Of a stretch of 56,466 nucleotides of DNA, positions 1-22,514 are shown piece by piece (position 1 is the first letter of the stretch; the number at the start of each line of letters is the position of its first letter). The notes under the pieces are model-generated. The model was not told the DNA's origin and ran no database searches. It saw only the letters and a program-made list of their open reading frames with translations. A program made the position numbers and the translations under genes. This DNA comes from an uncultured Saprospiraceae bacterium. GTDB taxonomy: Bacteria > Bacteroidota > Bacteroidia > Bacteroidales > CAYLPA01. The DNA lies in contig CAYLPA010000001.1 of NCBI GenBank assembly GCA_964385385.1, positions 1 to 56,466 of the forward strand. Direction: 5' to 3'.

Positions 1-236
1 ATACTCCCTTTCCTTATAGCTTTGTTGACCATATTGATTTGGAAATCTTCAACCGTTGGGGACAAATTGTATTTACATCAATTGACCCTGACATAAATTG
101 GGACGGAAAAAATAAAAATAATGGCGATGATGTTAGTGATGGTGTTTATTTTTATGTGTGCGATGTGTATGAATATCGCCTTGAAGGTATTGTAAAACGT
201 ACTATAACAGGATATGTACATGTTTACAGAAAATAA
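1..236 (+). CDS. 3' end of a secreted protein carrying a T9SS type-B (gliding-motility/CHU_C-like) C-terminal sorting domain; the 5' end lies outside the window
   Basis: The frame of ORF 39..236 stays open back to base 3 (TPFPYSFVDHIDLEIFNRWGQIVF...). The IFNRWG..VF....W.G......V.DGVY.Y pattern is typical of type-B CTDs. Confidence 0.7.
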   Translation, partial: TPFPYSFVDHIDLEIFNRWGQIVFTSIDPDINWDGKNKNNGDDVSDGVYFYVCDVYEYRLEGIVKRTITGYVHVYRK

Positions 237-643
237 TCCTAATTTTTTGTTACACATATAAGAAATTCTATTGTTTAATTCCATGAATTACTAATGATTA
301 CAAGTGTTTTTTTAGATGGAAATGAATAAATGTTAGTTCATTTTATAATATAATATTATGTAAATTATTGTTAATCTGTTCGAATAAAAAGAGCAACTTG
401 TATTTTAGGTTTAATAAATTTGACATACAATATATTTCGTTTAAAATAGCAAACTCATCTGAATATTAAATAAGTATAAGAAGTCGTTATTTAGTCAGGA
501 TTTGATAAAAAAGTGATTTTCACATGTAATAATTAAAGAAAAATTTGTAATATTGAAATGATTTAAGAAAATTGTTTGAAGAATTTTGTAATTTTTTTGA
601 ATCAAAACTGAAAAATGAATTTTTATAACACACCTTTTTAATT

Positions 644-1681
644 ATGAAACAGATTAATGAAAAGCTTATTAGAGAATCTTTTAATGAAATGGTAAAATAC
701 CGTTCAGCATTAGTAAAACACCTTATTGTAGATGAAGACGAAGACGATGATGATGAAGTGGATTACAGAATATTGGGTGATTTAATTATTAAAAACTTTC
801 CTTGGCCAATAGGAGTTGAATTGAGAAGATTGTTCTCCGGTTCAATGCGTCAATTAGACCGCTTACGCTTAGACCAGATTTTTAAAACCATTGAACGAAC
901 TATGCAATTTGTAAGTTTTGTTATGGTTTCACAACTTTGGAAAGACACATCAAAAGAAAAAATCAAAGTTTCAGAAAGTTTTAGTAAAGATTTTGAAAGC
1001 AGATTTGCGATTCTTAGTTTAGGGAATTTCACTTGGATGATTAGAGCCATTGGCAAAATGTATGAAGAGCAAAATGTTGAATGGTTTATGTCTGAAATGA
1101 ATGAAAATTTTAATAAAAAATTCTATGCTGCATTAGACTTTTGGGTACCTGAAAGAAATGAAATAGGTCATTATCAAATTAATTTAACACAGGAAGAAAT
1201 TGAAAAACGTTGTGTAGAATACGAAGAGAAATTAACCTTCATACTTAAAACAATTGCTTTTATTACTAAATACAAACTTGTTTCAGTCAGGGAAATAAAA
1301 GTACACAATTCTAAAAATCATGATGCAACATTTAACCATGTTATTGATTTATTAAATAGCACTGATAGTGACTTTAAAGCTAAAGAAATTGAAGAAAGCA
1401 AGTTCACAGAAAGTAGAGCTGTATTACTTATGAAATCTATAAAAACTATTGAAGAATATTTGAATCTATCACCTTTAATAATTGACACAAATTCAGAAAT
1501 ACTTGACAATAAGGAGAAATTCGATATTAAGAAGGATATATTCATGTTTACAAAACATCGTTCAGGGCATTTAATGTACGTTGGTACAGAAGTTACTGAT
1601 AAATGTGACCTACGGACTTTAAGTAATTATGATTTGCTAGTTGAAGAGTACAATGAACTTATTGATGCTATTTGTAATTAA
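644..1681 (+). CDS. Hypothetical 345-aa protein with a HEPN-like R-x4-H motif (PERNEIGHY); candidate RNase effector
   Basis: Long ATG-started ORF with an acidic tract (DEDEDDDDE). The RNEIGH motif matches the RNxxxH form of HEPN active sites. No other family was recognised. Confidence 0.6.
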   Translation: MKQINEKLIRESFNEMVKYRSALVKHLIVDEDEDDDDEVDYRILGDLIIKNFPWPIGVELRRLFSGSMRQLDRLRLDQIFKTIERTMQFVSFVMVSQLWKDTSKEKIKVSESFSKDFESRFAILSLGNFTWMIRAIGKMYEEQNVEWFMSEMNENFNKKFYAALDFWVPERNEIGHYQINLTQEEIEKRCVEYEEKLTFILKTIAFITKYKLVSVREIKVHNSKNHDATFNHVIDLLNSTDSDFKAKEIEESKFTESRAVLLMKSIKTIEEYLNLSPLIIDTNSEILDNKEKFDIKKDIFMFTKHRSGHLMYVGTEVTDKCDLRTLSNYDLLVEEYNELIDAICN

Positions 1682-1696
1682 AAATAATTCTAATCT

Positions 1697-1813
1697 ATGA
1701 AAAGTCCATTCAAATTTTTAGATAGCTACACCAAACCTGCCTTTAATAAAATTTCGGCAGGCGAGGAAGATGAAAATATTTTATTTGGCAGAGATAAAGA
1801 AACCGAAGAATAA
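1697..1813 (+). pseudogene. Truncated 38-codon copy of the 5' end of the STAND NTPase gene at 3055..7170
   Basis: Translates to MKSPFKFLDSYTKPAFNKISAGEEDENILFGRDKETEE*, compared with MKSPFKFLDSYTKEDKNIFFGRDKETEELYQ at 3061. The DNA is clearly homologous except for a 30-nt insert containing the hairpin CCTGCC..GGCAGG. Confidence 0.75.
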
Positions 1814-1867
1814 AACAAAATGGACAAACCGTATAACCAACTATATGATTTGTCCAAAAAATAATTG

Positions 1868-1875
1868 TATCTTTG
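1868..1875 (+). promoter_or_regulatory. Bacteroidota -7 box (TATCTTTG) directly upstream of the DUF4143 ATPase gene
   Basis: Exact TAnnTTTG match ending 5 nt before the ATG at 1880, which implies a very short or absent leader. Confidence 0.4.
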
Positions 1876-1879
1876 AATT

Positions 1880-3055
1880 ATGATTAACAGAATTCTAACA
1901 CACAAACTGCTCTATTTTGCAGATTTATATCCTGTTGTAAGCGTAACAGGTCCAAGGCAGTCAGGAAAAACAACCTTGGTTAAACAAGCCTTTCCTAATT
2001 ACCAATATGTTACTCTCGAAGATATTGATACCAGAAATATTGCCTTGAATGACCCAAAAGGATTTCTTGAAAGTCATAAAAATGGTTTAGTTATTGACGA
2101 AATTCAACGCATTCCTGAACTATTTTCATACATACAAGGAATTGTTGATAAAACGAATAATTCCGGACAGTTTATAATTACAGGCTCCCAGAATTTTTTA
2201 TTAATGGAAAATATTTCACAAACATTAGCAGGCAGAATTGCTATTTTGAAATTATTGCCATTTAGTTTCGAAGAGTTAAATAAGAATAACTTACTGCCGG
2301 ACAAATATGAATTATTAATATTTAATGGCTTTTATCCTCGCTTATATGATAAACAAATTTCACCAACAGACTTTTATCCGTTTTATATTCAAACATACAT
2401 TGAACGAGATGTGAAGTTGCTAAGAAATATTACAAATCATAATTCTTTTATAAGGTTCATAAAAATGTGTGCAGGAAGAACAGGGCAATTATTAAATATT
2501 ACTGAATTAGCTAATTCTTGCGGTATTACCCAAATTACTACAAAATCATGGTTGTCAATTCTTGAAGCAAGTTATATAATTTATTTTTTTCGTCCACATT
2601 ATAAAAACTATAATAAAAGATTAACCAAAATGCCAAAATTGTATTTTTATGATACCGGATTAGTATGTTCTTTGTTAGGGATTAAAAATAAAGAACAATT
2701 AAAAACTCATTTTTTATTTGGAGCATTATTTGAGAATTTTATTATTAATGAATTCATTAAACACGCCTATAACAATGCAATTAATCCCGAATTATATTTT
2801 TGGAGAGACAAACACGGAAAAGAAATAGATTTAATTATTGAAACTTCTGATAAGCTTATTCCAATTGAAATAAAAGCAGGAAAAACTTTTTCTATTGATT
2901 ATTTTAAAAACCTGAAATATTGGAATAAAATATCAGGTAATACTTCTGAGAATGCTTATGTAATATATGGAGGAAGTGAAAGTCATAAAACAAAAGATGG
3001 TCAAATATATAGCTGGAAAAGCATACTGGATTTATTTAATTTATTAAACTCATAA
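1880..3055 (+). CDS. AAA-family ATP-binding protein (AAA_14 + DUF4143 type)
   Basis: Walker A GPRQSGKTT, Walker B LVIDEIQ, and the 391-aa length and C-terminal region typical of DUF4143 ATPases common in Bacteroidota. Confidence 0.85.
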   Translation: MINRILTHKLLYFADLYPVVSVTGPRQSGKTTLVKQAFPNYQYVTLEDIDTRNIALNDPKGFLESHKNGLVIDEIQRIPELFSYIQGIVDKTNNSGQFIITGSQNFLLMENISQTLAGRIAILKLLPFSFEELNKNNLLPDKYELLIFNGFYPRLYDKQISPTDFYPFYIQTYIERDVKLLRNITNHNSFIRFIKMCAGRTGQLLNITELANSCGITQITTKSWLSILEASYIIYFFRPHYKNYNKRLTKMPKLYFYDTGLVCSLLGIKNKEQLKTHFLFGALFENFIINEFIKHAYNNAINPELYFWRDKHGKEIDLIIETSDKLIPIEIKAGKTFSIDYFKNLKYWNKISGNTSENAYVIYGGSESHKTKDGQIYSWKSILDLFNLLNS

Positions 3056-6000
3056 TGTATATGAAAAGCCCATTCAAATTTCTCGACAGTTATACCAAAG
3101 AAGATAAAAACATATTTTTTGGAAGAGATAAAGAAACCGAAGAACTTTATCAAAAAGTTTTTGAGAGTAAAGTATTGTTGGTTTATGGAGTTTCCGGTAC
3201 TGGAAAATCATCGCTTATTCATTGTGGGCTTGCTAATAAATTTAATGAGAGTGACTGGTTACCAATTAATATTAGGCGTGGAGCAAACATTAATGTTAGT
3301 TTGGGAAGAGCTATTGAAAAAGAGATTACTTCGACTTCGTTTCGTAATGACAATAAGAAAGGACTTTCACTTAAAAAACTATTACGCAATCTTTATCTTG
3401 ATAATTTTAAACCAATCTACCTTATCTTCGACCAGTTTGAAGAACTATTTATTTTTGGCTCAAAACCCGAAAGGGAAGATTTTATTAAATCAGTAAAATC
3501 AATTGTTGATAGTGATTTAAATTGCAAATTTCTTTTTGTGATTCGTGAAGAATATCTTGCAGGAATAACTGAGTTTGAAAAGCAGTTGCCGCAAATAATG
3601 CTAAACCGTATCCGCATTGAGAAAATGGGCAGGACTAATGCTATTCAAGCGATTGAAGGTCCTTGCAAATTTGCTGATATTTCATTGGAAAATGGTTTTT
3701 CAGAAGCATTAATTGAAAAACTATCACCTGATAGTGCTGAAGTTGAGTTAACCTATTTGCAGGTTTATTTAGATAAGCTTTTTAAAGTATCAGATAGTGG
3801 TTTTACAAAAGATTTAATTGAATCATTTGGAGATGTAAAAGATTTGCTGGGTTCATTTTTGGATGAACAAATTGCTGAATTAGAATCACCTGACGAAGGA
3901 CTTACTATTTTAAAAGCTTTTGTCTCAACCAAAGGAACAAAACGACAAATCACAGAATCAGAAGTTACTGATTATGCACTTACGCTTGGCAAACAAATAG
4001 AATCAGAACAATTAAGAAGTTTAATTCAAAAGTTTATTGCATTAAGGATTTTACGTGATAAAGACGAAAACAACCGTTACGAATTACGCCATGATGCTCT
4101 GGCAGCCAAGATTTATGAAAAAATTACTCTTGTTGAAAAAGAGCTTTTAGAAGTAAGACAGTTTATTGAGCATGCTTATGAAAATTATAAAAGACGAAAA
4201 GTATTATTAAACAAAACTGATTTAAGCTATATCGCACCTTATGAAGATAAAATATACTTTGGAAAAAATTTACAGGAATTTCTGAATAAAAGCAAATATG
4301 AGGATGAAAAGGCAAAACGCCGAAAACGTATATTAATATCTACTGCAGCAATCATTTTGTTACTGATTTTTGCAGGATTTAGTTGGTGGGCATTGAATGA
4401 AAGAAGTAAGGCTCAGGATAAAGAAAAACTTGCAAATGAATTATATATTAAATCTCAAGCAAACAATTTTAATTTCCTTGCAATAGAAGTTTTAGAAACC
4501 AATCCAACAAAAGCATTAGGTATTGCTGAATATGCTTATTCTCTAGATTCTAATAATAAAAACATTTACCAAAACTTATTAAACATTTATTATAACTATC
4601 CAATATATAAAAGGATCATAAAGAGGCTTAATAATGAAATAAGCTCAGTATGTTTCTCCCCAGATGGAAAAACATTAATAACTGGTTCTTGGGATAATAC
4701 TGCCCGTTTATGGGATTTGAATGGAAATCTGTTGCAGATTTTTAAAGGGCATAAATATGAAATTACTTCAGTAAGTTTCTCACCTGATGGGAAAACAATA
4801 CTAACTGGTTCTTTGGATATGACTGCCCGCTTATGGGATTTGGATGGAAAACAATTGCAGGTATTTAAAGGGCATGAAGGCTCTATTCATTCAGTATGTT
4901 TTTCACCTGATGGAAAAAAATTACTAACTGGTTCTTTTGATAAGACTGCCCGTTTATGGAATTTGGATGGTAACCAATTGCAGGTATTTAAAGGACATGA
5001 AAGCATAATCGTATCCGTATGTTTTTCACCTGATGGAAAAACAATACTAACTGGTTCTTCAGATAAGACTGCCCGTTTATGGGATTTGGATGGAAAACAA
5101 TTGCAGGTATTTAAAGGGCATAAAAGCTCTATCAATTCCGTATGCTTTTCACCCAATGGAAAAACAATACTAACTGGTTCTAATGATAAAACTGCCCGTT
5201 TATGGGATTTGGATGGAAAACAATTGCAGGTATTTAAAGGGCATAAAAGCTTTATTCGTTCAGTATGTTTTTCACCTAATGGACAAACATTACTAACTGG
5301 TTCTTTTGATAATACTGCCCGTTTATGGGGTTTGGATGGAAACCAATTGCAGGTATTTAAAGGACATAAAATGAGAATTCATTCCGTTTGTTTTTCCCCT
5401 GATGGAAAAACATTACTAACTGGTTCTTGGAATAATGTCCATTTATGGGATATGGGTGGAAACCTATTGCAGGTATTTAAAGGGCATGAAAGCTCTATTC
5501 GTTCAGTATGTTTTTCACCTGATGGAAAAACATTACTAACAGGTTCTGATGATAAGACTGTCCGTTTATGGGATTTGGATGGAAAACAATTGCAGGTATT
5601 TAAAGGGCATGAAAGCGGTATTCATTCAGTATGTTTTTCACCTGATGGAAAAACATTAATAACTGGTTCTTGGGATAATACTGCCCGTTTATGGGATTTG
5701 GATGGAAACCAATTGCAGAGATTTAATATGCAAGAGATTTCATCAATGTGTTTTTCCCCTGATGGAAAAACATTACTAACTGGTTCTTGGGATAATACTT
5801 TAAATTTATGGGATTGGGATGGGAACCAATTGCAGGTATTTAAAGGACATGAAGGCAATATTATTTTAGTATGTTTTTCACCTGATGGAAAGACAATACT
5901 AACAGGTTCTGTTGATAAGACTGCCCGTTTATGGGATTTGGATGGGAACCAATTGCAGGTATTTAAAGGGCATGAAGATGATATTTACACAGTGTGTTTT

Positions 6001-7170
6001 CACACTGATGGAAAGACAATACTAACGGGTTCTCGGGATAAAACTGCCCGTTTATGGGATTTGGATGGAAACCAATTGCAGGTATTTAAAGGACATGAAG
6101 GCAGTATTAGTTCAGTATGTTTTTCCCCTGACGGGAAATCAATAATAACTGGTTCAAGTGATGATGACAAATTAATATTATGGGATTTAGAAGGGCATCA
6201 ATTGCAATTATTTGCAAATCTGGGCTTTTCTTCTAATATGATTGATTTTTCTCCTGATGGTAAAACTATCTTAATTGGTTTAGAAAATGGAACAGCACAA
6301 CTATGGAAATTAAAAACACCATATAATAAATTTAAACAAAAAGACAAATATCCGAAGTTAAGTATAACTGATAAATTGGAATATGGCATATATAATTTCA
6401 ATGATGTTAAAAAAACAGAAAACAAAAATGAACTATTTCAAGCAGCTATGTTTTATTTTGAAAACTATAACAGAGAACCAAAAAGAAATTATGATTATTT
6501 GAATAATGCAGAATTTATTTTCAATAAACTATACAATATAAGCAAAGACGTTAATTATTTAATACAATATCAAAAACTTATATTAATTAAATACCTACAA
6601 AAAGCTGATGAAAAGCTAATTGATAAATCAAAAAAAATACATAAAAAATTATTAGAATATTATGATATGAAATATTTATGGGAAATAATACGAGAGTATG
6701 ATTCTCTATTGGAAAAATATTCTGAAAATGTTAATATTTCTGAATTTAATTTTCATAAAAAACGTTTAGACATATATAAAAAAACACTAAATCATAAAGA
6801 TGCAACAAAAGAAACAAAAAAAACTATATCACTACGCTTATCAAAAGATTCATACAATTTATTATTAGATAAAAAATATGAAGAGGCAAAACAAGCAGCG
6901 TTATTAGCTAAGCAAGCAAATCCAAATAACACAATTCTATATACCAATTTAGCACTTGCTTACCTTTTAACTGATGATTGGCAAAAAGCAAAAGAAGTTT
7001 ATACAAATTGGAAGGATAGTACCTATATTAACAATAATAATCCGGAAAGAAAGTGCAGAGATGCTTTCTTAGAAGGTTTAAAAGAATTAGAAAGCGAAGG
7101 CATAACTCACCCAGATTTCTCCAAAGTCAGAGAATTGTTAAAAGAAGAAAAAACTGAAACCAATGAATAA
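3055..7170 (+). CDS. STAND (nSTAND/NACHT-like) P-loop NTPase, single TM helix, 14 WD40 repeats, C-terminal TPR-like region
   Basis: FFGRDKETEEL..LLVYGVSGTGKSS (Walker A) and IYLIFDQFEELF (Walker B-like DQFEE). TM helix ILISTAAIILLLIFAGFSWWAL. Fourteen repeats of about 41 aa of the form SVCFSPDGKT.LTGS.D.TARLWDL.G.QLQVFKGH. TPR-like tail. The true start may be the ATG at 3061, which matches the remnant copy. Confidence 0.9.
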   Translation: MYMKSPFKFLDSYTKEDKNIFFGRDKETEELYQKVFESKVLLVYGVSGTGKSSLIHCGLANKFNESDWLPINIRRGANINVSLGRAIEKEITSTSFRNDNKKGLSLKKLLRNLYLDNFKPIYLIFDQFEELFIFGSKPEREDFIKSVKSIVDSDLNCKFLFVIREEYLAGITEFEKQLPQIMLNRIRIEKMGRTNAIQAIEGPCKFADISLENGFSEALIEKLSPDSAEVELTYLQVYLDKLFKVSDSGFTKDLIESFGDVKDLLGSFLDEQIAELESPDEGLTILKAFVSTKGTKRQITESEVTDYALTLGKQIESEQLRSLIQKFIALRILRDKDENNRYELRHDALAAKIYEKITLVEKELLEVRQFIEHAYENYKRRKVLLNKTDLSYIAPYEDKIYFGKNLQEFLNKSKYEDEKAKRRKRILISTAAIILLLIFAGFSWWALNERSKAQDKEKLANELYIKSQANNFNFLAIEVLETNPTKALGIAEYAYSLDSNNKNIYQNLLNIYYNYPIYKRIIKRLNNEISSVCFSPDGKTLITGSWDNTARLWDLNGNLLQIFKGHKYEITSVSFSPDGKTILTGSLDMTARLWDLDGKQLQVFKGHEGSIHSVCFSPDGKKLLTGSFDKTARLWNLDGNQLQVFKGHESIIVSVCFSPDGKTILTGSSDKTARLWDLDGKQLQVFKGHKSSINSVCFSPNGKTILTGSNDKTARLWDLDGKQLQVFKGHKSFIRSVCFSPNGQTLLTGSFDNTARLWGLDGNQLQVFKGHKMRIHSVCFSPDGKTLLTGSWNNVHLWDMGGNLLQVFKGHESSIRSVCFSPDGKTLLTGSDDKTVRLWDLDGKQLQVFKGHESGIHSVCFSPDGKTLITGSWDNTARLWDLDGNQLQRFNMQEISSMCFSPDGKTLLTGSWDNTLNLWDWDGNQLQVFKGHEGNIILVCFSPDGKTILTGSVDKTARLWDLDGNQLQVFKGHEDDIYTVCFHTDGKTILTGSRDKTARLWDLDGNQLQVFKGHEGSISSVCFSPDGKSIITGSSDDDKLILWDLEGHQLQLFANLGFSSNMIDFSPDGKTILIGLENGTAQLWKLKTPYNKFKQKDKYPKLSITDKLEYGIYNFNDVKKTENKNELFQAAMFYFENYNREPKRNYDYLNNAEFIFNKLYNISKDVNYLIQYQKLILIKYLQKADEKLIDKSKKIHKKLLEYYDMKYLWEIIREYDSLLEKYSENVNISEFNFHKKRLDIYKKTLNHKDATKETKKTISLRLSKDSYNLLLDKKYEEAKQAALLAKQANPNNTILYTNLALAYLLTDDWQKAKEVYTNWKDSTYINNNNPERKCRDAFLEGLKELESEGITHPDFSKVRELLKEEKTETNE
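4639..6312 (+). repeat. Tandem 123-bp coding repeats (14 WD40 blades), highly homogenised at DNA level
   Basis: The core actgcccgtttatgggatttggatggaaa(a/c)caattgcaggtatttaaagg(g/a)cat recurs near-identically at 123-nt spacing (for example 5068 and 5191 are identical). Confidence 0.9.
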
Positions 7171-8482
7171 ACAAATTAAAATATCAAAAACAACTCCCGT
7201 AGAATCATTTTATATTATAGTCTGTGGTATGTTCAAATACGACACTAAGGCTATTAATCAGAAAGAGTTCTGGAGTTTATACACACACTGGCAAAATCGC
7301 ATAAACAAAGGAGATTATCAGGCAACCTTTAATTATTTCAATTCATCCTATTATGATGGTTACCTAAATAATGTCTTTCCGGAAATACGTCATGACAAAT
7401 CAAGAAGAGATGAATTGGACCCTAAATTCTTAAATCATCTGACAAACAAATCACTTATAAAAAACAGATTGGATATTGGCTTAATGATAAATTCTGAGAA
7501 AACTGTTTCTTGTTTTATTGAATTTGCTGACATTTATCTTTTTCCTCATGGTAATGGGATTTTTTCGATAAAATTGTCATTAGACGATGATAATCTAAAT
7601 TTAGGTAAAATATCAGATTTTATTAATAAAGTCAGACAATTAAATTCTATTGTGAAAATCGACAAAAAGGAAATTAAGCTAAAGGATTTTATTGACGATA
7701 TAATTTTCAAACCATTAAACTCAAAAGAAGATTGGACTTACTATAATCCAAAATTAAAGTCCTACAATATAATTGATGTAAAGAAGCAAATTTCAGAAGA
7801 TGAATTAAATTATTTGCTTTATGATATGGGGAATGTAGCCCCAATAGGTTCTGCTAAGGGTGATGGTGTTTATGCCCCATCTGACGAATATTTGAAAAAC
7901 CAAATGGAAAATAATAAGCTGTCTGTTTTTAAAAATTGGTCAGCAATTTCTTTGTTTGATACATTTACGAAAATAAGCTGGACATTTCCTGATACTGTGA
8001 AGAGCTGGGAGTATGATTATTTTCATATTTACATTCACTGTCTGCATTTAAAATTTTACATGTATCTTACTAACTCAAAAATTAGTGATGTTACTATTGT
8101 TACTAAAGAAACTGAAAATATAAGGGATGATTTCATTGAGTTTATTAACGATTATTATCAAACGCAAATTTCATATAAGTTTTTGCCTGATTTAATTCAG
8201 GATAAATTATTGTATGCATTGGAAATCCATTCTGAAATTCAAATGATGGAAACAAAAATTCAACGCATAAATGAACATGCTCAGGAAAAACGAGAACGAA
8301 ATATGAACTTCGTTTTAATGGTCATTACATTTTTAGGTGTTTTCTCTCTTATTCATGATTTGTCAAACTGGATAGTTAAAATGGGAAGTCCAATAGATGT
8401 TGTTTTTCCATGGATAAGTAGCGGAATTGGTGTTGCTATTATTACATCAATATTTATTTTATTTAAACTACGAAAGAAATAA
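7163..8482 (+). CDS. Hypothetical 439-aa protein with a soluble N-terminal region, a coiled-coil and a C-terminal 2-TM hairpin (CorA-like architecture); candidate membrane effector
   Basis: Its ATG overlaps the STAND stop (ATGAATAA). The C-terminus has two hydrophobic helices (FVLMVITFLGVFSLI and SGIGVAIITSIFILF) after EIHSEIQMMETKIQRINEHAQEKRERN. Confidence 0.75.
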   Translation: MNKQIKISKTTPVESFYIIVCGMFKYDTKAINQKEFWSLYTHWQNRINKGDYQATFNYFNSSYYDGYLNNVFPEIRHDKSRRDELDPKFLNHLTNKSLIKNRLDIGLMINSEKTVSCFIEFADIYLFPHGNGIFSIKLSLDDDNLNLGKISDFINKVRQLNSIVKIDKKEIKLKDFIDDIIFKPLNSKEDWTYYNPKLKSYNIIDVKKQISEDELNYLLYDMGNVAPIGSAKGDGVYAPSDEYLKNQMENNKLSVFKNWSAISLFDTFTKISWTFPDTVKSWEYDYFHIYIHCLHLKFYMYLTNSKISDVTIVTKETENIRDDFIEFINDYYQTQISYKFLPDLIQDKLLYALEIHSEIQMMETKIQRINEHAQEKRERNMNFVLMVITFLGVFSLIHDLSNWIVKMGSPIDVVFPWISSGIGVAIITSIFILFKLRKK

Positions 8483-8489
8483 TATCTAA

Positions 8490-9083
8490 GTGAAGGAAAT
8501 AGACTTAAATAAAGTAATTTTCACAATTGAAGCACAGTTTCATGTATTGAAACATTTCAATAGCATTGATAAGGAATTTCTCGACGAATTAATTATTGCT
8601 GGTTTTTCAAAATCTGATATAAATAGTCAGTTGAAGATTTCTAGTTCCAAATTTAATCCTTCTTTCTGCATTAATCCAATACAACTTTTAAGTATTATTA
8701 AAAGAGCAAATAAAAGGTCAGAAATACAAGCAAATTCAGGAAAAAAGAACATTGAACTATCATTTGAATTTTCAAAAAATGACTATCCTAATGGTATTGG
8801 ATGGGACCATTTAATTCGCATTATAGATTTGACAGAAAAACAACTCATAAACATTGAAAAAAGAAAAGTTCAAAATACAGTTATAAATTTCACTGAAGGA
8901 AAACCTATTCCAACACATGAATTAAATTTTGTACTGGAACAAAAAGATAGTAAACATCATATTGTTACAATATACCCTGGTATTTATGCTCCACCATTTC
9001 AAGATATAACATCTCAAAATAATGGATTATTCCAGATTTCTAAAGTTTTTTGGGATGAACATGTATTTGTTTTTATAAGCTGA
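8490..9083 (+). CDS. Hypothetical 197-aa protein, last gene of the STAND block
   Basis: GTG start 7 nt after the upstream stop, with no in-frame ATG nearby. No family recognised. Confidence 0.6.
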   Translation: MKEIDLNKVIFTIEAQFHVLKHFNSIDKEFLDELIIAGFSKSDINSQLKISSSKFNPSFCINPIQLLSIIKRANKRSEIQANSGKKNIELSFEFSKNDYPNGIGWDHLIRIIDLTEKQLINIEKRKVQNTVINFTEGKPIPTHELNFVLEQKDSKHHIVTIYPGIYAPPFQDITSQNNGLFQISKVFWDEHVFVFIS

Positions 9084-9200
9084 TTAATTCATGCGTTTAT
9101 TTTTTGGCTATATTTTTTATTTTTTGCTCCACATACCTTATTTTTGGTTTTTTAATATAATTTTGCCTACAAATTAATTTCTAAATAAATAACAATAATT

Positions 9201-9812
9201 ATGTTTACAGGAATCGTTGAAAGAACAGCAAAGGTTGTGAATATTGAAAAAGAAGGCACAAATATTCATTTCACATTGGAAACAAAAATTGCCAAAGATT
9301 TAAAAATTGACCAGAGCATGTCTCACGATGGGGTTTGCTTAACAATTGTTAAAGTTGACACCAAAAAAAATCAATATGTTGTTACAGCCATTCAGGAAAC
9401 CCTTGATAAATCTTGCCTTGGGATATGGGATATCGGCTATGAAGTAAATCTTGAAAGAAGCATGAAAATGGATGGACGTTTTGACGGACATATTGTTCAG
9501 GGACATGTTGACCAAACTGCAATTTGCCGAAAAGTTGAAAAATTTGATGGCAGTTGGAAATTCTATTTTGAATATGACCCTTCTTACGGAAATATCACCG
9601 TTGGAAAAGGTTCTATTTCTGTCAATGGTGTTAGTTTAACCGTTGTAGATTCTGAACCTAAGATGTTCTCTGTTGCAATCATTCCTTATACTTATGATAT
9701 TACTAATTTCCACAATTTTAAAAATGGCACAGTAGTTAACATTGAATTCGACATTTTCGGAAAATATGTTTCTAAACTTTTAAAACTCTATTTGGAAGAT
9801 CAAAAAAAGTAA
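9201..9812 (+). CDS. ribE: Riboflavin synthase alpha chain
   Basis: MFTGIVE N-terminus, duplicated lumazine-binding halves (SHDGVCLT / SVNGVSLT), 203 aa. Confidence 0.92.
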   Translation: MFTGIVERTAKVVNIEKEGTNIHFTLETKIAKDLKIDQSMSHDGVCLTIVKVDTKKNQYVVTAIQETLDKSCLGIWDIGYEVNLERSMKMDGRFDGHIVQGHVDQTAICRKVEKFDGSWKFYFEYDPSYGNITVGKGSISVNGVSLTVVDSEPKMFSVAIIPYTYDITNFHNFKNGTVVNIEFDIFGKYVSKLLKLYLEDQKK

Positions 9813-9878
9813 TAAAATAAATATTGAAAAATTTGCGTTGTTAAATAAGAAAGTCTGTCTTTCTTAAGCAAAATTTTT

Positions 9879-10595
9879 ATGAAAACTAATATTTATAAAA
9901 CCATTTTATGGGTTTGCATTTTAGCAATTGCTATGGCATTTCTGGAAAGTGCAATCGTTGTTTATCTCCGAAAATTATATTATCCCGAAGGATTCTGTTT
10001 TCCATTAAAAAGCATTGAATTTGACATTGCAGTTACTGAATTTCTCCGAGAAATTGCAACGCTAATAATGTTGATAGCAATAGGAATTATTGCGGGCAGA
10101 AAAAACATTGAACGTTTTGCATTCTTTATTTTTTCCTTTGCTATCTGGGACATTTTTTATTATGTATTTCTAAAATTGCTTATCAGTTGGCCTGAATCTT
10201 TAATGACCTGGGATGTTCTATTTCTTGTTCCAGTTACATGGGTAGGTCCTGTTCTCGGACCTATAATAAATTCATTAAGTATGATAATTTTGGCTTTACT
10301 TATAATTTTCTTTGTTCAAAAAAACGGAAATGCAAGAGTTGTCTGGATTGAATGGATATTATTGATTGTTGGCTCTCTAATTATTATTATCTCCTACACC
10401 GAAGAATATGTTAGATTTATGATAAATGATTTTACTTTTTTTCAGTTGATTATTTCTAATAATTCTCAAGCAATCTTAAGCAAAGCATTAACTTTTGTTC
10501 CCCAATTTTATAATTGGTTTATTTTTCTGATTGGTGAACTAATGTTTTTAATAGCTTTCGTGATGGTGCTTATAAGAAATAGAAAACTTTCTTAA
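9879..10595 (+). CDS. Polytopic inner-membrane protein, function unknown
   Basis: 238 aa with about 6 hydrophobic segments. No family recognised. Confidence 0.7.
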   Translation: MKTNIYKTILWVCILAIAMAFLESAIVVYLRKLYYPEGFCFPLKSIEFDIAVTEFLREIATLIMLIAIGIIAGRKNIERFAFFIFSFAIWDIFYYVFLKLLISWPESLMTWDVLFLVPVTWVGPVLGPIINSLSMIILALLIIFFVQKNGNARVVWIEWILLIVGSLIIIISYTEEYVRFMINDFTFFQLIISNNSQAILSKALTFVPQFYNWFIFLIGELMFLIAFVMVLIRNRKLS

Positions 10596-10601
10596 AAATT
10601 T

Positions 10602-12194
10602 TTACTGCAACACAACTTTTTCAACCTTAACAAAATCTTTATTTGCAAGTTTGATGAAATATATTCCTTTAAGTTGTGATGACAAATCAAATTGGAGATT
10701 ATTTTGATTGTGAAAAATCAATTTGGGTTTTATTATTTCCTGACCTAATATGTTTTGTATTGAAAGTATAAAATCTTTTTTTATTCCCGAATGATTAATC
10801 TTAATAATTCCTGTAGTTGGATTTGGGTATATATTTATTTTGGCTTGTTTTAAATCAAAATGCGGCAATCCCACATTCGCACATAAGGAAGAATCCTGAA
10901 TATATTGAATATTGCCCACACCACTATGAGCTCCTTTCACAATACAACCTGAGCTAATCTGAATCGGATCATAGTATGTTAATGTTGATGGACTACTGAC
11001 AATAGTATTTGTTGGAAAACAATTACAAAGTGTATTACCGTATTTGTCTGTTTTAATCATATAAACATTAAGGGGTAAAGAACCTACATTAAAGCTACCA
11101 CTCTGTCCCGTAATTATAAATCCACTATCACTTGTTATCTCTAACGCATACGCGAAGTCATGGTCAATTCCACCATACATTTTAGTCCATAAAGTATCAC
11201 CAACAGAATCCGTTCTAATTAAATAAACATTATAACATGGGTTACTTGGTGTACATTTTTCACCACCAATATTATTACTTTGCATTCTTCCGGCAATTAT
11301 ATACCCATTATCATAAGTTTGTCTTACAATATAGCCTTCATCTCCATAACTATCACCATAAGTTTTTGACCATTGAAGATATCCGAGAGAATCAGTTTTT
11401 ATAAAATATACATCAACAATACCACCTACTGCATAGCTTACCGTTGAACCTATGATTGCATATCCACCATCATTGGTTTCAATAACATCTTTAGCCCAAT
11501 CATAAGTTGAACCTCCATAAATTCTTGTCCACAAGGTATCTCCGTTAGGATTAATTTTAATTAAACAAACATTATCATAGAAATTTTGCGCAATAGCTCC
11601 TGTAATAACATAATTACTGTCGGAAGTCATTTTTATAGATTTTCCATTATCACTCTTTATTCCTCCAAAGGTTCTTGTCCAAATTGTATCGCCTGATGAA
11701 TTAATTCTAATCACATAAATATCTGATAAACCTGCTCCATAACTTTCAGTTAAACCCGTAATAATATATCCATTATCTTTAGTATATTCTATCGAAAATG
11801 CCTCATCACTATTTAAACCTCCATAAGTTTTGGTCCAAATTGTATCTCCGTATTTGTCAGTCTTAACAACATATATATCATGCCCCCCTGCACCTGAACT
11901 ATGAGTCCTTCCCGCAGCAATAAAACCACTATCATTAGTTTCTTTTACCGCATAAAAATAACCCTGACTTACCAAAACTCCAATATCATAGTTCTTTGCC
12001 CATTCAATATTTCCCAAACTATCGGTTTTTGTCATTCCACTACCTGCCATTAGGTAACCATTATCATAAGTAATAATGCAGGCATTATTTGTTGTTAAAT
12101 CCTTACCACTATAAGCTTTTTGAAAATTTTGTGCATTAATAATTATACTTATAGTTTGGCAAAACACCATTGTAATAAAAAATATCTTTTTCAT
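10602..12194 (-). CDS. Secreted repeat protein with a T9SS (Por_Secre_tail) C-terminal sorting domain
   Basis: Signal peptide MKKIFFITMVFCQTISIIINAQ, taken from the ATG at 12194 rather than the track start at 12224. Repeated GDT.WT.TYGG...D modules. C-terminus is IYPNPTTGIIKI...KGIYFIKLANKDFVKVEKVVLQ. Confidence 0.85.
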   Translation of the reverse strand: MKKIFFITMVFCQTISIIINAQNFQKAYSGKDLTTNNACIITYDNGYLMAGSGMTKTDSLGNIEWAKNYDIGVLVSQGYFYAVKETNDSGFIAAGRTHSSGAGGHDIYVVKTDKYGDTIWTKTYGGLNSDEAFSIEYTKDNGYIITGLTESYGAGLSDIYVIRINSSGDTIWTRTFGGIKSDNGKSIKMTSDSNYVITGAIAQNFYDNVCLIKINPNGDTLWTRIYGGSTYDWAKDVIETNDGGYAIIGSTVSYAVGGIVDVYFIKTDSLGYLQWSKTYGDSYGDEGYIVRQTYDNGYIIAGRMQSNNIGGEKCTPSNPCYNVYLIRTDSVGDTLWTKMYGGIDHDFAYALEITSDSGFIITGQSGSFNVGSLPLNVYMIKTDKYGNTLCNCFPTNTIVSSPSTLTYYDPIQISSGCIVKGAHSGVGNIQYIQDSSLCANVGLPHFDLKQAKINIYPNPTTGIIKINHSGIKKDFILSIQNILGQEIIKPKLIFHNQNNLQFDLSSQLKGIYFIKLANKDFVKVEKVVLQ

Positions 12195-14220: not shown

Positions 14221-15633
14221 TTACTGCAACACAACTTTTTCAACCTTAACAAAATCTTTGTTTGCAAGTTTGATTAAGTAGATTCCCTTGGAGTAAGATG
14301 ATAAATCAATTTTACTAAAATAATCTGTAAGTTGACCACTATAAACAGCTTTGCCGTTTTGACTATAAATTTTAATATTAACCGGCTCAAGTTGATTTTC
14401 TATGGTGATATTAACAAGTCCATTTGTTGGGTTTGGATAAATATTAATACTATTTGAAATATCTTCAAAATTTTCGACACTTGATATAATTGCAACAGAA
14501 CAATCAAAAGAATGAACATCAGTTGTTGAACCTGTTCCAAGTTGCCCTATATAATTAGCACCTGTAACACATATAGAATTTGCATTATCTTTCAAAGCTG
14601 CTGTATGTAATCCATACATTGAATTTCCTGCATAAAGAGGTTTTGCCGGCGAAATCATTAACCAATTTTCGTTGGTAGATATAGCTTTTGGAGAATTCAT
14701 TTGAGTAGTATTTCCAGTACTAAGTTGACCATTACCATTAAAACCCCATGCATATAATGTTGAATCGCTTCTGAAAGCAAATGAAAAGCCGGAACCAGCC
14801 GAAACAGAAATCCAGTTAAAATAGGTTCCAATTTTTTCGGGATAATGTTTTTCTGTTGTGCTTCCAATCCCAAGTTGTCCATTACCATTAAATCCCCATG
14901 ACCATAAAGTACTATCTTTCTTTAGTGCCACACTAAACTCTCCACCTCCGCCAATATCTATCCATTTTTCGTTATTTAATTTAATAGGGTATAATTTATC
15001 TATTGTTGTACTATCTCCAAGTTGACCTGAATAATTAAATCCCCAAACCCATAAACTGCTATCGTTTTTTAGTGCCAATGTATGAAGACCACCCGAAGAA
15101 ATAACTTTCCAATCATTTTCCAAACCAACTCTTATAGGAAAATTTTTATCTACAAGAGTACTATCACCTAACTGTCCGCAATAATTATATCCCCATGCCC
15201 AAAGACTTCCATCCGTTTTAATTGCATATGAACTTGCATAAGATGCTTCAATAAAAGTCCAATCATTTGAACTACCAATTTGAACCGGTGAAGTTTTATC
15301 AGTATTTGAACTATCTCCCAAACAACCAATATAATTTAAACCCCATGCCCATAAACTATGGTCACTTTTTAGAGCTAAACAATGAGCTCCTCCGGCAACA
15401 ATATCAATCCAGTTTGTATCTGTTCCAATCTGGATTGGATTATATTGAGTTGTTTTATTACCAATTCCTAGTTGCCCATTTCCATTAAATCCCCATGACC
15501 AAAGTGTTCCGTCTGATTTTAATGCAACAGTAAATTCTCCACCGCATTTTACTTTTAACCATTTTGTTTGGGCATTGGTATTTAAAACCAATAATAATAA
15601 AACAATAAATAATAGGATATTAGTTTTTTTCAT
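14221..15633 (-). CDS. RCC1-repeat (beta-propeller) secreted protein with a T9SS C-terminal sorting domain
   Basis: Signal peptide, repeated W.WG.N..GQLG.G motifs, and C-terminus IYPNPTNGLVNI...KGIYLIKLANKDFVKVEKVVLQ. Confidence 0.88.
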   Translation of the reverse strand: MKKTNILLFIVLLLLVLNTNAQTKWLKVKCGGEFTVALKSDGTLWSWGFNGNGQLGIGNKTTQYNPIQIGTDTNWIDIVAGGAHCLALKSDHSLWAWGLNYIGCLGDSSNTDKTSPVQIGSSNDWTFIEASYASSYAIKTDGSLWAWGYNYCGQLGDSTLVDKNFPIRVGLENDWKVISSGGLHTLALKNDSSLWVWGFNYSGQLGDSTTIDKLYPIKLNNEKWIDIGGGGEFSVALKKDSTLWSWGFNGNGQLGIGSTTEKHYPEKIGTYFNWISVSAGSGFSFAFRSDSTLYAWGFNGNGQLSTGNTTQMNSPKAISTNENWLMISPAKPLYAGNSMYGLHTAALKDNANSICVTGANYIGQLGTGSTTDVHSFDCSVAIISSVENFEDISNSINIYPNPTNGLVNITIENQLEPVNIKIYSQNGKAVYSGQLTDYFSKIDLSSYSKGIYLIKLANKDFVKVEKVVLQ

Positions 15634-21311: not shown

Positions 21312-22514
21312 ATGGAGACATTTAAATTAAAAGCTGAAGATCCACTATTAAATGATAATTACGACAACTCATTATATAATCAATCAGGTTTCATTTTAAA
21401 TCTTCAAACACTAATTTCTGATACAGTTGAACCTCCATATTCTATTTCTTTGAATGGGGATTGGGGCTCAGGTAAAACTACTGTATTAAAAAGTTTAGAA
21501 GAGGATTTGATAAAAGATAAGTTTGAAGTATTATGGTTTAATCCTTGGGAATATGAAAGGTCAAATGATGTTGTTCTTGTTTTCTTACAGCAATTATCAA
21601 ATCTTGCAAAAGGCGATTATTCTGATGTATTAACAGAGCTTTCAATTATTGGGAAAACCATATTAGCTGGAGCAGTTGATACAGTTGCAAGGTTTTTTAC
21701 AAATGGTAATCTTTCTGTAGAAAATATTCAAAAAATTCATGAATTAGTTGAAAGAGATTCACAAAGTAAGTATGATACCTATTCGAGCTTTGTAGATGAA
21801 ATAAAATCAGACTTTAAAAAGTTAACTAATAAAATCTCAGAGAAAAAACAAGACAAGCCATTAATCATCATTCTTGATGACCTTGATCGCTGTTTACCTG
21901 AAAATGCATTAGAATTAATAGAAGCTTTAAAGAATATTTTTATTGTTAAGGATGCGAAAGCAATTTTTATTGCTGGAATAGACACAAATATTGCAAAAAT
22001 GTTTATTCAGTCAAAGTATAAGGGATTACCTGATGAGTTTGCGTATAATTATTTTAAAAAGATTTTCAATTCTACTATTAATCTGCCAAATTTTGATAAG
22101 ATTCAAATTCATAATTTCATTGATAGTTATTTAAAAAAATGGAGTACAAATTTAATTAACTCAGATGAAAAAGAATTTATAGCAGGTTGTTTAATTTATG
22201 CAGAAGTCAAAAGTATAAGATCAGTTCAAAACATATTTGCTAATTTTTATTTATATAAGAAACTAAATAAAAATTCAAGTTTGAATAATAATCAAGTAAT
22301 GATTCTTAATGTTTTCAAGGAAATATGGCCATCAGAATACGAAAGATTATTAATGCAATGCAGGAAAAATCCTAGTGTTAGTATTAGTAATATTCTTAGT
22401 CGCGAAATTGATCCAATTGATCGAAAAAATGATGATAAGCTATCATATAAATTTAATCAAACATATTCACATAAGTATTTTCGGGAAACAGAAGGTAGTC
22501 AACTGATATATTAG
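21312..22514 (+). CDS. KAP-family P-loop NTPase
   Basis: LNGDWGSGKTT (Walker A) and PLIIILDDLDRCLPENALELIEALKNIF (KAP Walker B region), 400 aa. Confidence 0.85.
   Translation: METFKLKAEDPLLNDNYDNSLYNQSGFILNLQTLISDTVEPPYSISLNGDWGSGKTTVLKSLEEDLIKDKFEVLWFNPWEYERSNDVVLVFLQQLSNLAKGDYSDVLTELSIIGKTILAGAVDTVARFFTNGNLSVENIQKIHELVERDSQSKYDTYSSFVDEIKSDFKKLTNKISEKKQDKPLIIILDDLDRCLPENALELIEALKNIFIVKDAKAIFIAGIDTNIAKMFIQSKYKGLPDEFAYNYFKKIFNSTINLPNFDKIQIHNFIDSYLKKWSTNLINSDEKEFIAGCLIYAEVKSIRSVQNIFANFYLYKKLNKNSSLNNNQVMILNVFKEIWPSEYERLLMQCRKNPSVSISNILSREIDPIDRKNDDKLSYKFNQTYSHKYFRETEGSQLIY

Follow-up and report, generated by a model that had tools for sequence, protein, structure and literature searches.

Repetitive WD40 arrays with variable surfaces are known from prokaryotes and fungi. 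Hu et al. 2017 (PMC5587647) described prokaryotic "Highly-Repetitive" WD40 proteins with an internal identity of at least 0.7, in which the hotspot sites stay diverse, and Dyrka et al. 2020 reported bacterial proteins resembling NOD-like receptors (NLRs), whose WD or TPR repeats are 80-90% identical and may diversify like the fungal ones. In the fungal HNWD proteins (Ament-Velasquez 2025, PMC12222747), repeats of 80-100% identity carry four hypervariable codons and form a double propeller. On the side of the signalling domains, nSTAND1, a clade of STAND nucleoside triphosphatases (NTPases), was defined in conflict systems (Kaur 2020/2021 eLife). Here we analyse a 14-unit WD40 array encoded by a STAND gene of an uncultured Saprospiraceae bacterium; the window is the whole stretch of DNA that was analysed, 56,466 nucleotides (nt) of contig CAYLPA010000001.1 (assembly GCA_964385385.1).

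A preliminary description of this DNA had recognised the array, likened it to the fungal receptors and proposed that it is a rapidly diversifying recognition module. On balance, we think that the array probably is the ligand-sensing domain of a single-pass transmembrane nSTAND1 STAND NTPase, for which we propose periplasmic sensing that is relayed via a conserved partner protein.

Results

A STAND NTPase with a WD40 array behind a transmembrane helix

The protein, of 1371 amino acids (aa), is built in the order nSTAND1 NTPase, transmembrane helix, linker, 14 WD40 units and TPR-like tail, with the following features:

3055..7170, plus strand: whole STAND gene, 1371 aa (open reading frame list and translation)
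3070..4191, plus strand: nSTAND1 STAND NTPase domain, aa 6-379 (PF20703, E 1.5e-41, Walker A and B)
4324..4395, plus strand: single transmembrane helix, aa 424-447, with KAKRRKR just before it (Kyte-Doolittle score 2.37)
4396..4623, plus strand: juxtamembrane helical linker, aa 448-523 (sequence comparison; helix at the start of the structural model)
4624..6339, plus strand: 14 WD40 units, aa 524-1095 (Tandem Repeats Finder, manual parsing and AlphaFold2 model)
6340..7167, plus strand: C-terminal alpha-helical tail, aa 1096-1371 (276 aa), with a weak TPR signal, ending ...GITHPDFSKVRELLKEE

The native start of the gene is likely the ATG at 3061, because the homologues and a remnant copy of the gene's 5' end (see below) begin with MKSPFKF. 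The match to PF20703 spans profile positions 1-372 of 379 and is thus a full-length nSTAND1 match, with GVSGTGKS as Walker A and LIFDQFEE as Walker B. No NACHT profile matched at E<=0.1 within aa 1-422, and there is no N-terminal HET-like effector: the NTPase profile begins at residue 6, with no N-terminal extension. The linker is common to the subfamily members P0009, P0036 and L007. The WD40 profile (PF00400) matches 13 stretches of the protein (E 6.8e-166), while the TPR_19 and TPR_17 matches of the tail, at E of about 5e-3, fall below the cut-off; homologues of the tail occur in L005 (46%) and L007 (30%) only. Among the curated anti-phage STAND systems of PADLOC 2.0 (Avs, bNACHT and others) the STAND protein matches none, its only PADLOC matches being the WD40-driven HEAT-ARM_XIII and mad8 at 0.003. 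An antisense open reading frame (4887..5156, minus strand) lies within the strongly supported coding repeat.

Recent common DNA ancestry of the repeat units

Tandem Repeats Finder reports a period of 123 nt at 4645-6155, with 12.4 copies and 82% matches. The preliminary description had counted 14 repeats of 123 nt each; the 14 units stand, but only 11 of them measure 123 nt (41 codons), the others being unit 7 (120 nt, 40 codons), unit 9 (117 nt, 39 codons) and unit 13 (126 nt, 42 codons). The WD40 tetrad (DHSW) is conserved, with H at column 2, S or T at columns 20-22, D at column 24 and W at column 30 of the unit. Pairwise identity among units 2-13 ranges from 67 to 92% at the DNA level (mean 81%), with a mean of 72% at the protein level; nucleotide identity to the remaining units falls to about 70% for unit 13 and to about 45% for unit 14. 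The 60-nt cores at 5068 and 5191 were correctly described as identical, and the exact match between 5068-5127 and 5191-5250 in fact runs over 61 nt, the longest exact internal repeat of the array.

Because the genome has a G+C content of about 29%, similar DNA is expected from a conserved protein alone. We therefore compared the units with a null in which codons were resampled from the usage of the window while the protein of each unit was kept (300 resamplings). The observed nucleotide identity of 0.81 compares with an expected 0.67 (standard deviation 0.006), and at positions with the same residue the codons are identical in 0.835 of cases, as against 0.46 expected and a maximum of 0.54 in the 300 resamplings. 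The DNA homogeneity of the units thus exceeds what protein constraint and codon bias produce. The earlier phrase "near-identical at DNA level" overstates the similarity, given the means above, although identity does lie far above the 67% expectation.

Since both measures exceed the resampled expectation, the units have a recent DNA ancestor in common, via tandem amplification and/or homogenisation. Column 10 is Cys (SVCFSPDG) in 12 units whereas the consensus of related arrays is Ala, which points to amplification from one founder unit. A Sawyer-type test for gene-conversion mosaicism reached significance with all sites (0/1000 permutations), but only as long as the hypervariable ones were among them. 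The similarity of units showed no clear trend of decay with distance along the array, and there was no clean higher-order period, a 369-nt period being only marginally better than the 123-nt one in Tandem Repeats Finder.

Strain comparison and assembly quality

Repeats of this kind may be collapsed or made chimeric in assembly from short reads. Contigs often terminate in related arrays (P0036, P0232 and P0001 are incomplete), and fungal arrays of the HNWD kind were not assemblable from Illumina data (PMC12222747). Here, however, an independent MEGAHIT contig (L001; ENA ERZ27317826 k141_8099), 99.8% identical to the window over 13.6 kb, encodes an identical 1371-aa protein, and the 4.1-kb STAND gene including the array is the same in a strain that differs elsewhere. 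The frame is intact through the 14 units and the model is well folded. Because the gene is identical on the independent contig and the longest exact repeat (61 nt) is well under the read length and the k-mer length (k=141), assembly collapse is excluded, and any other artefact of this sort has a negligible chance. The artefact that the preliminary description had named as a possible refutation was therefore not borne out.

The window and L001 differ at 25 positions, all outside the STAND gene, at or beyond position 9641. Twenty of these fall within about 300 nt (9641-9938), covering the 3' end of a riboflavin-synthase gene and the start of a 238-aa membrane-protein gene, and this patch looks like a recombination tract. 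Other alleles of the array were found neither among 5.8 billion proteins nor in JGI contigs, so that one second strain only is available. As this sole second strain carries an identical array, the term "rapidly diversifying" finds no support here.

The array is predicted to form two seven-bladed propellers

The AlphaFold2 model of aa 505-1100 (pLDDT 92.6, pTM 0.66) contains 56 strands, which within each unit occupy columns 6-11 (strand a), 17-22 (strand b), 27-31 (strand c) and 36-40 (strand d). Among solved structures the closest relative is PDB 2YMU, a Nostoc punctiforme protein described as "a highly repetitive propeller structure" (sequence match E 3e-183, Foldseek match E 2e-57), and the 7-bladed designer WD40 protein 7BIG superposes on half of the model with a TM-score of 0.96 and a root mean square deviation of 0.8 Å. 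Model confidence dips at unit 7, the carrier of a one-codon deletion. Together, these matches and the dip indicate that the array would fold as two 7-bladed propellers, formed by units 1-7 and 8-14.

Variable residues coincide with top-face hotspots

Wu et al. 2012 (PMC3419727) defined the top-face hotspots of WD40 propellers from sequence, by the fingerprint (I)-R1-R2-(V): where strand a starts, two bulky residues enclose R1 and R2; R1-2 precedes R1 by two residues, and D-1 is the residue before the tetrad Asp. Among units 2-13, entropy peaks at column 7 (2.86 bits), column 23 (2.86 bits), column 5 (2.75 bits) and column 4 (2.22 bits), and lies below 1 bit at most of the remaining columns of the 41-codon unit. 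In the I-x-S-V segment, column 7 is R1 and column 5 is R1-2, and column 23 is D-1, so that the three columns of highest entropy are three hotspots; by chance, these would rank as the top three of 41 columns with a probability of about 1e-4. At each of the three, eight different residues are found among 12 units. We refer to the codons of columns 4, 5, 7 and 23 (in unit 4, nt 5002, 5005, 5011 and 5059) as hypervariable; column 4 adds one position adjacent to the canonical hotspots.

In the AlphaFold2 model the variable columns map to the d-a loop, the beginning of strand a and the b-c turn, that is to the top face of what both the model and 2YMU support as two propellers. These results bear out the earlier equation of the variable residues with the known hotspots, and the residues it listed before the tetrad Asp (W,L,F,S,N,F,W,D,W,W,V,R,S) and around the Ile were exactly right. 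Its statement that variation is focused on contact positions needs qualification: columns 4, 5, 7 and 23, 10% of the columns, hold 31% of the pairwise amino-acid differences, and the six top-face columns 3, 4, 5, 7, 23 and 25 hold 43%, but more than half (57%) lie outside these six, largely in the degenerate units 7, 10 and 13. The exposed loops of the bottom face are conserved, with 7% of the differences in columns 12-16 and 14% in columns 31-35. Because replacements concentrate on the top-face hotspots while the scaffold is constant, each blade is predicted to present a different contact surface on a common frame, in which the bottom loops too stay the same.

Pooled Nei-Gojobori counts with Jukes-Cantor (JC) correction were compared between the hypervariable codons and a background of the 35 codons outside the six top-face columns. 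The proportions of nonsynonymous and synonymous differences (pN and pS) were 0.66 and 0.62 in the four hypervariable codons (JC-corrected dN 1.59) and 0.10 and 0.25 in the background (JC-corrected dS 0.31). The dN of the hypervariable codons is thus about five times the dS of the background codons, an indirect test that supports diversifying selection. The entropy profile and dN/dS analysis suggested in the preliminary description therefore gave the expected peaks and a fivefold excess over the background, although the ratio inside the hypervariable codons alone was only about 1.2.

These data could also arise from a neutral young repeat, recently amplified on a stable scaffold, in which the variable columns are merely the least constrained surface and neither diversifying selection nor a recognition role is involved. 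The near equality of pN and pS inside the hypervariable codons fits this explanation, as do the arrays' identity in the two strains, the 57% of differences that lie elsewhere, and the emphasis of Hu 2017 (PMC5587647) on the youth and stability of such proteins. It does not explain why the other solvent-exposed loops, those of the bottom face, stay conserved, why dN at the hotspots so exceeds dS in flanking codons that have shared their history, or why eight residues alternate at each hotspot. Moreover, the same columns recur: in most of the repetitive nSTAND1-transmembrane arrays listed below, variability is again highest at columns 5, 7 and 23, together with 4 and 25, and independent arrays with these variable columns include L014, L022, L031, P0232, P0126, P0199 and L079. 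We thus regard neutral youth as an improbable account of the hotspot pattern.

Predicted topology and exchangeable C-terminal domains

The N-terminal part (aa 1-523) has 2055 homologues at E<1e-10, almost all from metagenome-assembled genomes of Bacteroidota. In about 113 of the best 120 of these the transmembrane helix lies at the same place, and its flanks are strongly asymmetric in charge, with 6.75 Lys and Arg on the N-terminal side against 3.28 on the C-terminal side; the N-terminal side is the richer in 97% of the homologues. The protein has one hydrophobic span of about 22 residues and no second one. Topology was predicted from two things only, hydropathy and the positive-inside rule. 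Because the helix is conserved and the positive-inside bias is strong, we infer that the array lies outside the cytoplasm, with the NTPase cytoplasmic and the WD40 array and TPR-like tail periplasmic (N-in/C-out).

The domain that follows the helix differs among paralogues, consisting of 7 divergent WD40 blades, of third and fourth or N-terminal domains of GldM, of an FGE-sulfatase domain or of ABC2_membrane. In the type 9 secretion system, GldM domains lie in the periplasm. Two loci (L002/L003; GCA_964435855.1 and JGI 3300031645) and chromosome OY970346.1 (L022, L035 and L038) carry clustered or multiple paralogues of this nSTAND1-transmembrane type, with GldM-like, WD40 or ABC2_membrane domains after the helix. 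Their N-terminal modules are up to 75-80% identical to that of the window and their C-terminal domains are unrelated, so that the sets look as though domains had been shuffled behind a constant signalling module. A single hydrophobic span just before the array is also seen in unrelated WD40 proteins of other phyla (P0122, P0123, P0145 and P0166), which contain TIR or other NTPase domains; a layout of NTPase or effector, transmembrane helix and WD40 may be widespread.

The preliminary description implied a cytosolic setting, which the family-conserved helix and the charge bias argue against. In its strongest form, that alternative would make the protein a cytosolic NLR-like receptor of the HET-E/D or Avs type, with the hydrophobic segment as a tether or non-spanning, and the WD40 domain sensing an intracellular invader protein. 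The combination of STAND and highly conserved WD40 repeats does fit fungal and bacterial NLR-like proteins, the nSTAND1 clade owes its definition to conflict systems, the many Cys residues fit the cytoplasm, and a PDC-S01 defence candidate (see below) and a KAP-family P-loop NTPase gene (21312-22514) lie nearby. Yet the single span and the family-wide asymmetry place NTPase and WD40 on opposite sides of the membrane, the GldM-type domains of paralogues occupy the position of the array, and we found no N-terminal effector, NACHT match or known PADLOC system. A cytosolic receptor is therefore rather unlikely.

Relatives of the array

No full-length orthologue was found in the collections searched (5.8 billion proteins, a genome collection and JGI metagenome contigs). 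With the C-terminal tail as query the protein search gave only one partial relative; JGI metagenome contigs had no match in a tail search or to a wobble-tolerant DNA pattern, and in the genome collection the N-terminal identity of any relative was at most 73%. By architecture, L007 comes closest, with 63% N-terminal identity and a homologous tail; because it has only 7 divergent blades, the 14-unit array of the window is a lineage-specific expansion. In another locus with a related tail, L005 (GCA_016209245.1), a run of N at about 5950-6000 lies exactly between WD40 array and tail, an assembly gap at the repeat that splits the gene into calls of 1223 and 171 aa.

Internal array identity reaches at least 0.4 in only 2 of the best 120 N-terminal homologues. 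A genome scan revealed a recurrent subfamily of nSTAND1-transmembrane proteins with repetitive arrays, whose mean internal amino-acid identity is 0.67 in L014, 0.77 in L022, 0.81 in L035, 0.73 in L038, 0.76 in P0232 and, in Aminicenantes, 0.70 in L072 and 0.68 in L079. The scaffold of the window's array is 0.81 identical internally as against at most 0.77 to any other array, and in three paralogues of a single chromosome the repeats are of one type, 0.83-0.90 identical. Such an excess of within-array over between-array identity marks concerted or very recent evolution.

A conserved partner gene and the gene neighbourhood

The genes around the STAND gene are the following:

644..1681, plus strand: 345-aa conserved partner gene (no Pfam, NCBIfam or PADLOC family)
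1697..1813, plus strand: 38-codon remnant of an nSTAND1 5' end, MKSPFKFLDSYTK...FGRDKETEE-stop (nucleotide similarity to 3060-3144)
1880..3055, plus strand: AAA_14 and DUF4143 ATPase gene, PADLOC candidate PDC-S01 (DUF4143 7e-53, AAA_14 2.5e-32, PDC-S01 2.5e-104)
7163..8482, plus strand: 439-aa protein with two C-terminal transmembrane helices, weakly CorA-like (PADLOC CorA 4.8e-13)
8490..9083, plus strand: 197-aa protein whose gene accompanies that of the 439-aa protein

In 52 of 77 genome loci a homologue of the partner lies immediately 5' of the nSTAND1 gene, a linkage that spans phyla (KSB1, Aminicenantes, Moduliflexus and an alphaproteobacterium). An exhaustive search found the partner domain in 569 representative proteins at E<1e-3, often C-terminal to another module, either AraC-HTH with or without a nucleotide (adenylate/guanylate) cyclase, or a CHAT protease. 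As examples of both types of fusion again sit directly 5' of nSTAND1 genes, the arrangement supports a two-gene module in which the partner would carry the output. A profile search of the partner against the PDB gave nothing significant (best E 0.47), and a Pfam scan of 34 members of the partner family gave no consistent family.

The remnant is 85-89% identical in nucleotides to 3060-3144, with a 30-nt insertion, and begins 16 nt past the partner stop, the usual position of an nSTAND1 gene start. The stop of the ATPase gene overlaps the ATG of the STAND gene by 1 nt. The AAA_14/DUF4143 gene was apparently inserted between partner and STAND gene. Locus L002 shows the same arrangement of an nSTAND1 fragment and a DUF4143 ATPase, and this suggests that such ATPase genes may insert or recombine repeatedly at nSTAND1 gene starts.

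On the 3' side, the 439-aa gene overlaps the STAND stop by 8 nt, and its link to the system is uncertain. We rejected it as a dedicated effector, since homologues occur near nSTAND1 genes in only 2-3 of the 77 loci. In L007 and L036 the 439-aa homologue is followed by a homologue of the 197-aa protein, and L074 also has one. In L007 (4246-7985) the 439-aa domain forms the C-terminus of a 1043-aa TPR and SpoIIE/PP2C-like protein; a TPR-SpoIIE gene also occurs within the nSTAND1 cluster of L002. The wider neighbourhood consists of chromosomal housekeeping genes (metK, queA, ribE) of a Bacteroidota that bears type 9 secretion, and 14221-15633 encodes a propeller protein with RCC1 repeats and a sorting domain for type 9 secretion. 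Within 1-12000 there were no Rfam families; we found no terminator-like sites, promoter-like sites only at background level and no plasmid match.

Discussion

We propose that a periplasmic ligand, probably a protein or peptide, would bind the variable top faces of the propellers, and that the binding signal might pass through the membrane helix. The cytoplasmic nSTAND1 domain could then undergo nucleotide-dependent switching or oligomerisation and act through the 345-aa partner protein. The output of the module may be defence or cell death, or ordinary envelope signalling.

Several results weigh against this reading. Restricted to the third positions of non-hypervariable codons, the Sawyer-type test gave only P=0.07. 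The dN/dS ratio inside the hypervariable codons, at about 1.2, is saturated, and no ongoing diversification is seen between the two available strains, a comparison of shallow depth and low power. The array contains 12 unpaired Cys, which is unusual for a periplasmic domain, although this is a mild argument. As for the partner, its fold is not predicted (a single-sequence model reached pLDDT 35), and the copy in the window has no recognisable output domain and is separated from the STAND gene by the inserted ATPase gene.

Going further, the gene might belong to an undescribed class of trans-envelope STAND receptors abundant in Bacteroidota, in which an nSTAND1 switch and one transmembrane helix are joined to an exchangeable periplasmic sensor (WD40, GldM-like, FGE or other) and signal via the 345-aa adaptor domain; here a self-diversifying 14-blade array would bring NLR-style recognition to the periplasm. 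We put this wider reading forward tentatively, as somewhat less probable than not. We found no paper describing the transmembrane nSTAND1 architecture or the partner domain, which is weak evidence as our literature coverage is incomplete.

The array itself is a Bacteroidales example of a documented phenomenon and changes little. Should the propellers lie in the periplasm, NLR-like sensing through a diversifying repeat surface would reach the Gram-negative cell envelope, and the partner, fused elsewhere to CHAT, AraC and cyclase domains, would be the output arm of a widespread, uncharacterised two-gene module for signalling or defence, present at hundreds of loci and often several times per genome. 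Most worth following up are the predicted location in the periplasm and the conserved partner module, and the hotspot residues offer a ready mutagenesis map for finding the ligand.

Comparison with known systems

The predicted N-in/C-out layout resembles that of Ser/Thr kinases of the PknD/PknB type, which have a cytoplasmic enzymatic domain, one transmembrane helix and an extracytoplasmic beta-propeller or PASTA sensor. These differ in carrying a kinase rather than a STAND NTPase, and homology is limited to the general propeller fold.

With the class of Hu 2017, of which PDB 2YMU is a solved example, the array shares its 14 units, an identity of about 0.72, the complete DHSW tetrad, the hotspot variation and the two 7-bladed propellers. 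It lies at the low end of that class: the mean of 0.72, and 0.73 in the best six-repeat window, are borderline with respect to the 0.7 threshold, on a measure that is not exactly theirs. It differs in its host, an uncultured Bacteroidales, and in that the array stands behind a transmembrane helix and an nSTAND1 domain and carries a TPR-like tail.

The fungal HNWD genes het-e, het-d and het-r (NACHT-WD40; Paoletti 2007; PMC12222747) likewise combine conserved repeats with four hypervariable codons on the interaction surface, in a double-propeller sensor with a STAND NTPase upstream. As in these, a conserved WD40 repeat here has a few hypervariable codons with signs of diversifying selection, seen indirectly as hypervariable dN against background dS. 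The preliminary description's analogy with HET-E/D is thus apt, but does not extend to membership of that family, since the protein has nSTAND1 rather than NACHT and no HET domain. It is also membrane-spanning with a predicted extracytoplasmic sensor, whereas fungal NLRs are cytosolic; its nucleotide identity is 81% as compared with 80-100%, and no repeat-number polymorphism was seen in the two strains.

Closest in NTPase clade are the bacterial NLR-like and nSTAND1 conflict systems (Kaur 2020/2021 eLife; Dyrka 2020; the nSTAND1-CLec proteins diversified by diversity-generating retroelements, PMC10907252), which share a variable C-terminal sensor, several paralogues per genome and the idea of a diversifying sensor. 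Theirs are N-terminal effectors or EAD adaptor pairs with mostly cytoplasmic sensors, whereas the protein of the window has no N-terminal extension, a separate 345-aa gene on its 5' side and a transmembrane helix before the sensor. Its diversity, unlike that of nSTAND1-CLec, would come from repeat evolution and not from a retroelement. A highly self-similar array with hotspot variation is thus already described for prokaryotes (Hu 2017, PMC5587647; Dyrka 2020); what appears to be new is the conserved 345-aa partner gene 5' of nSTAND1 genes, fused elsewhere to CHAT or AraC/cyclase domains.

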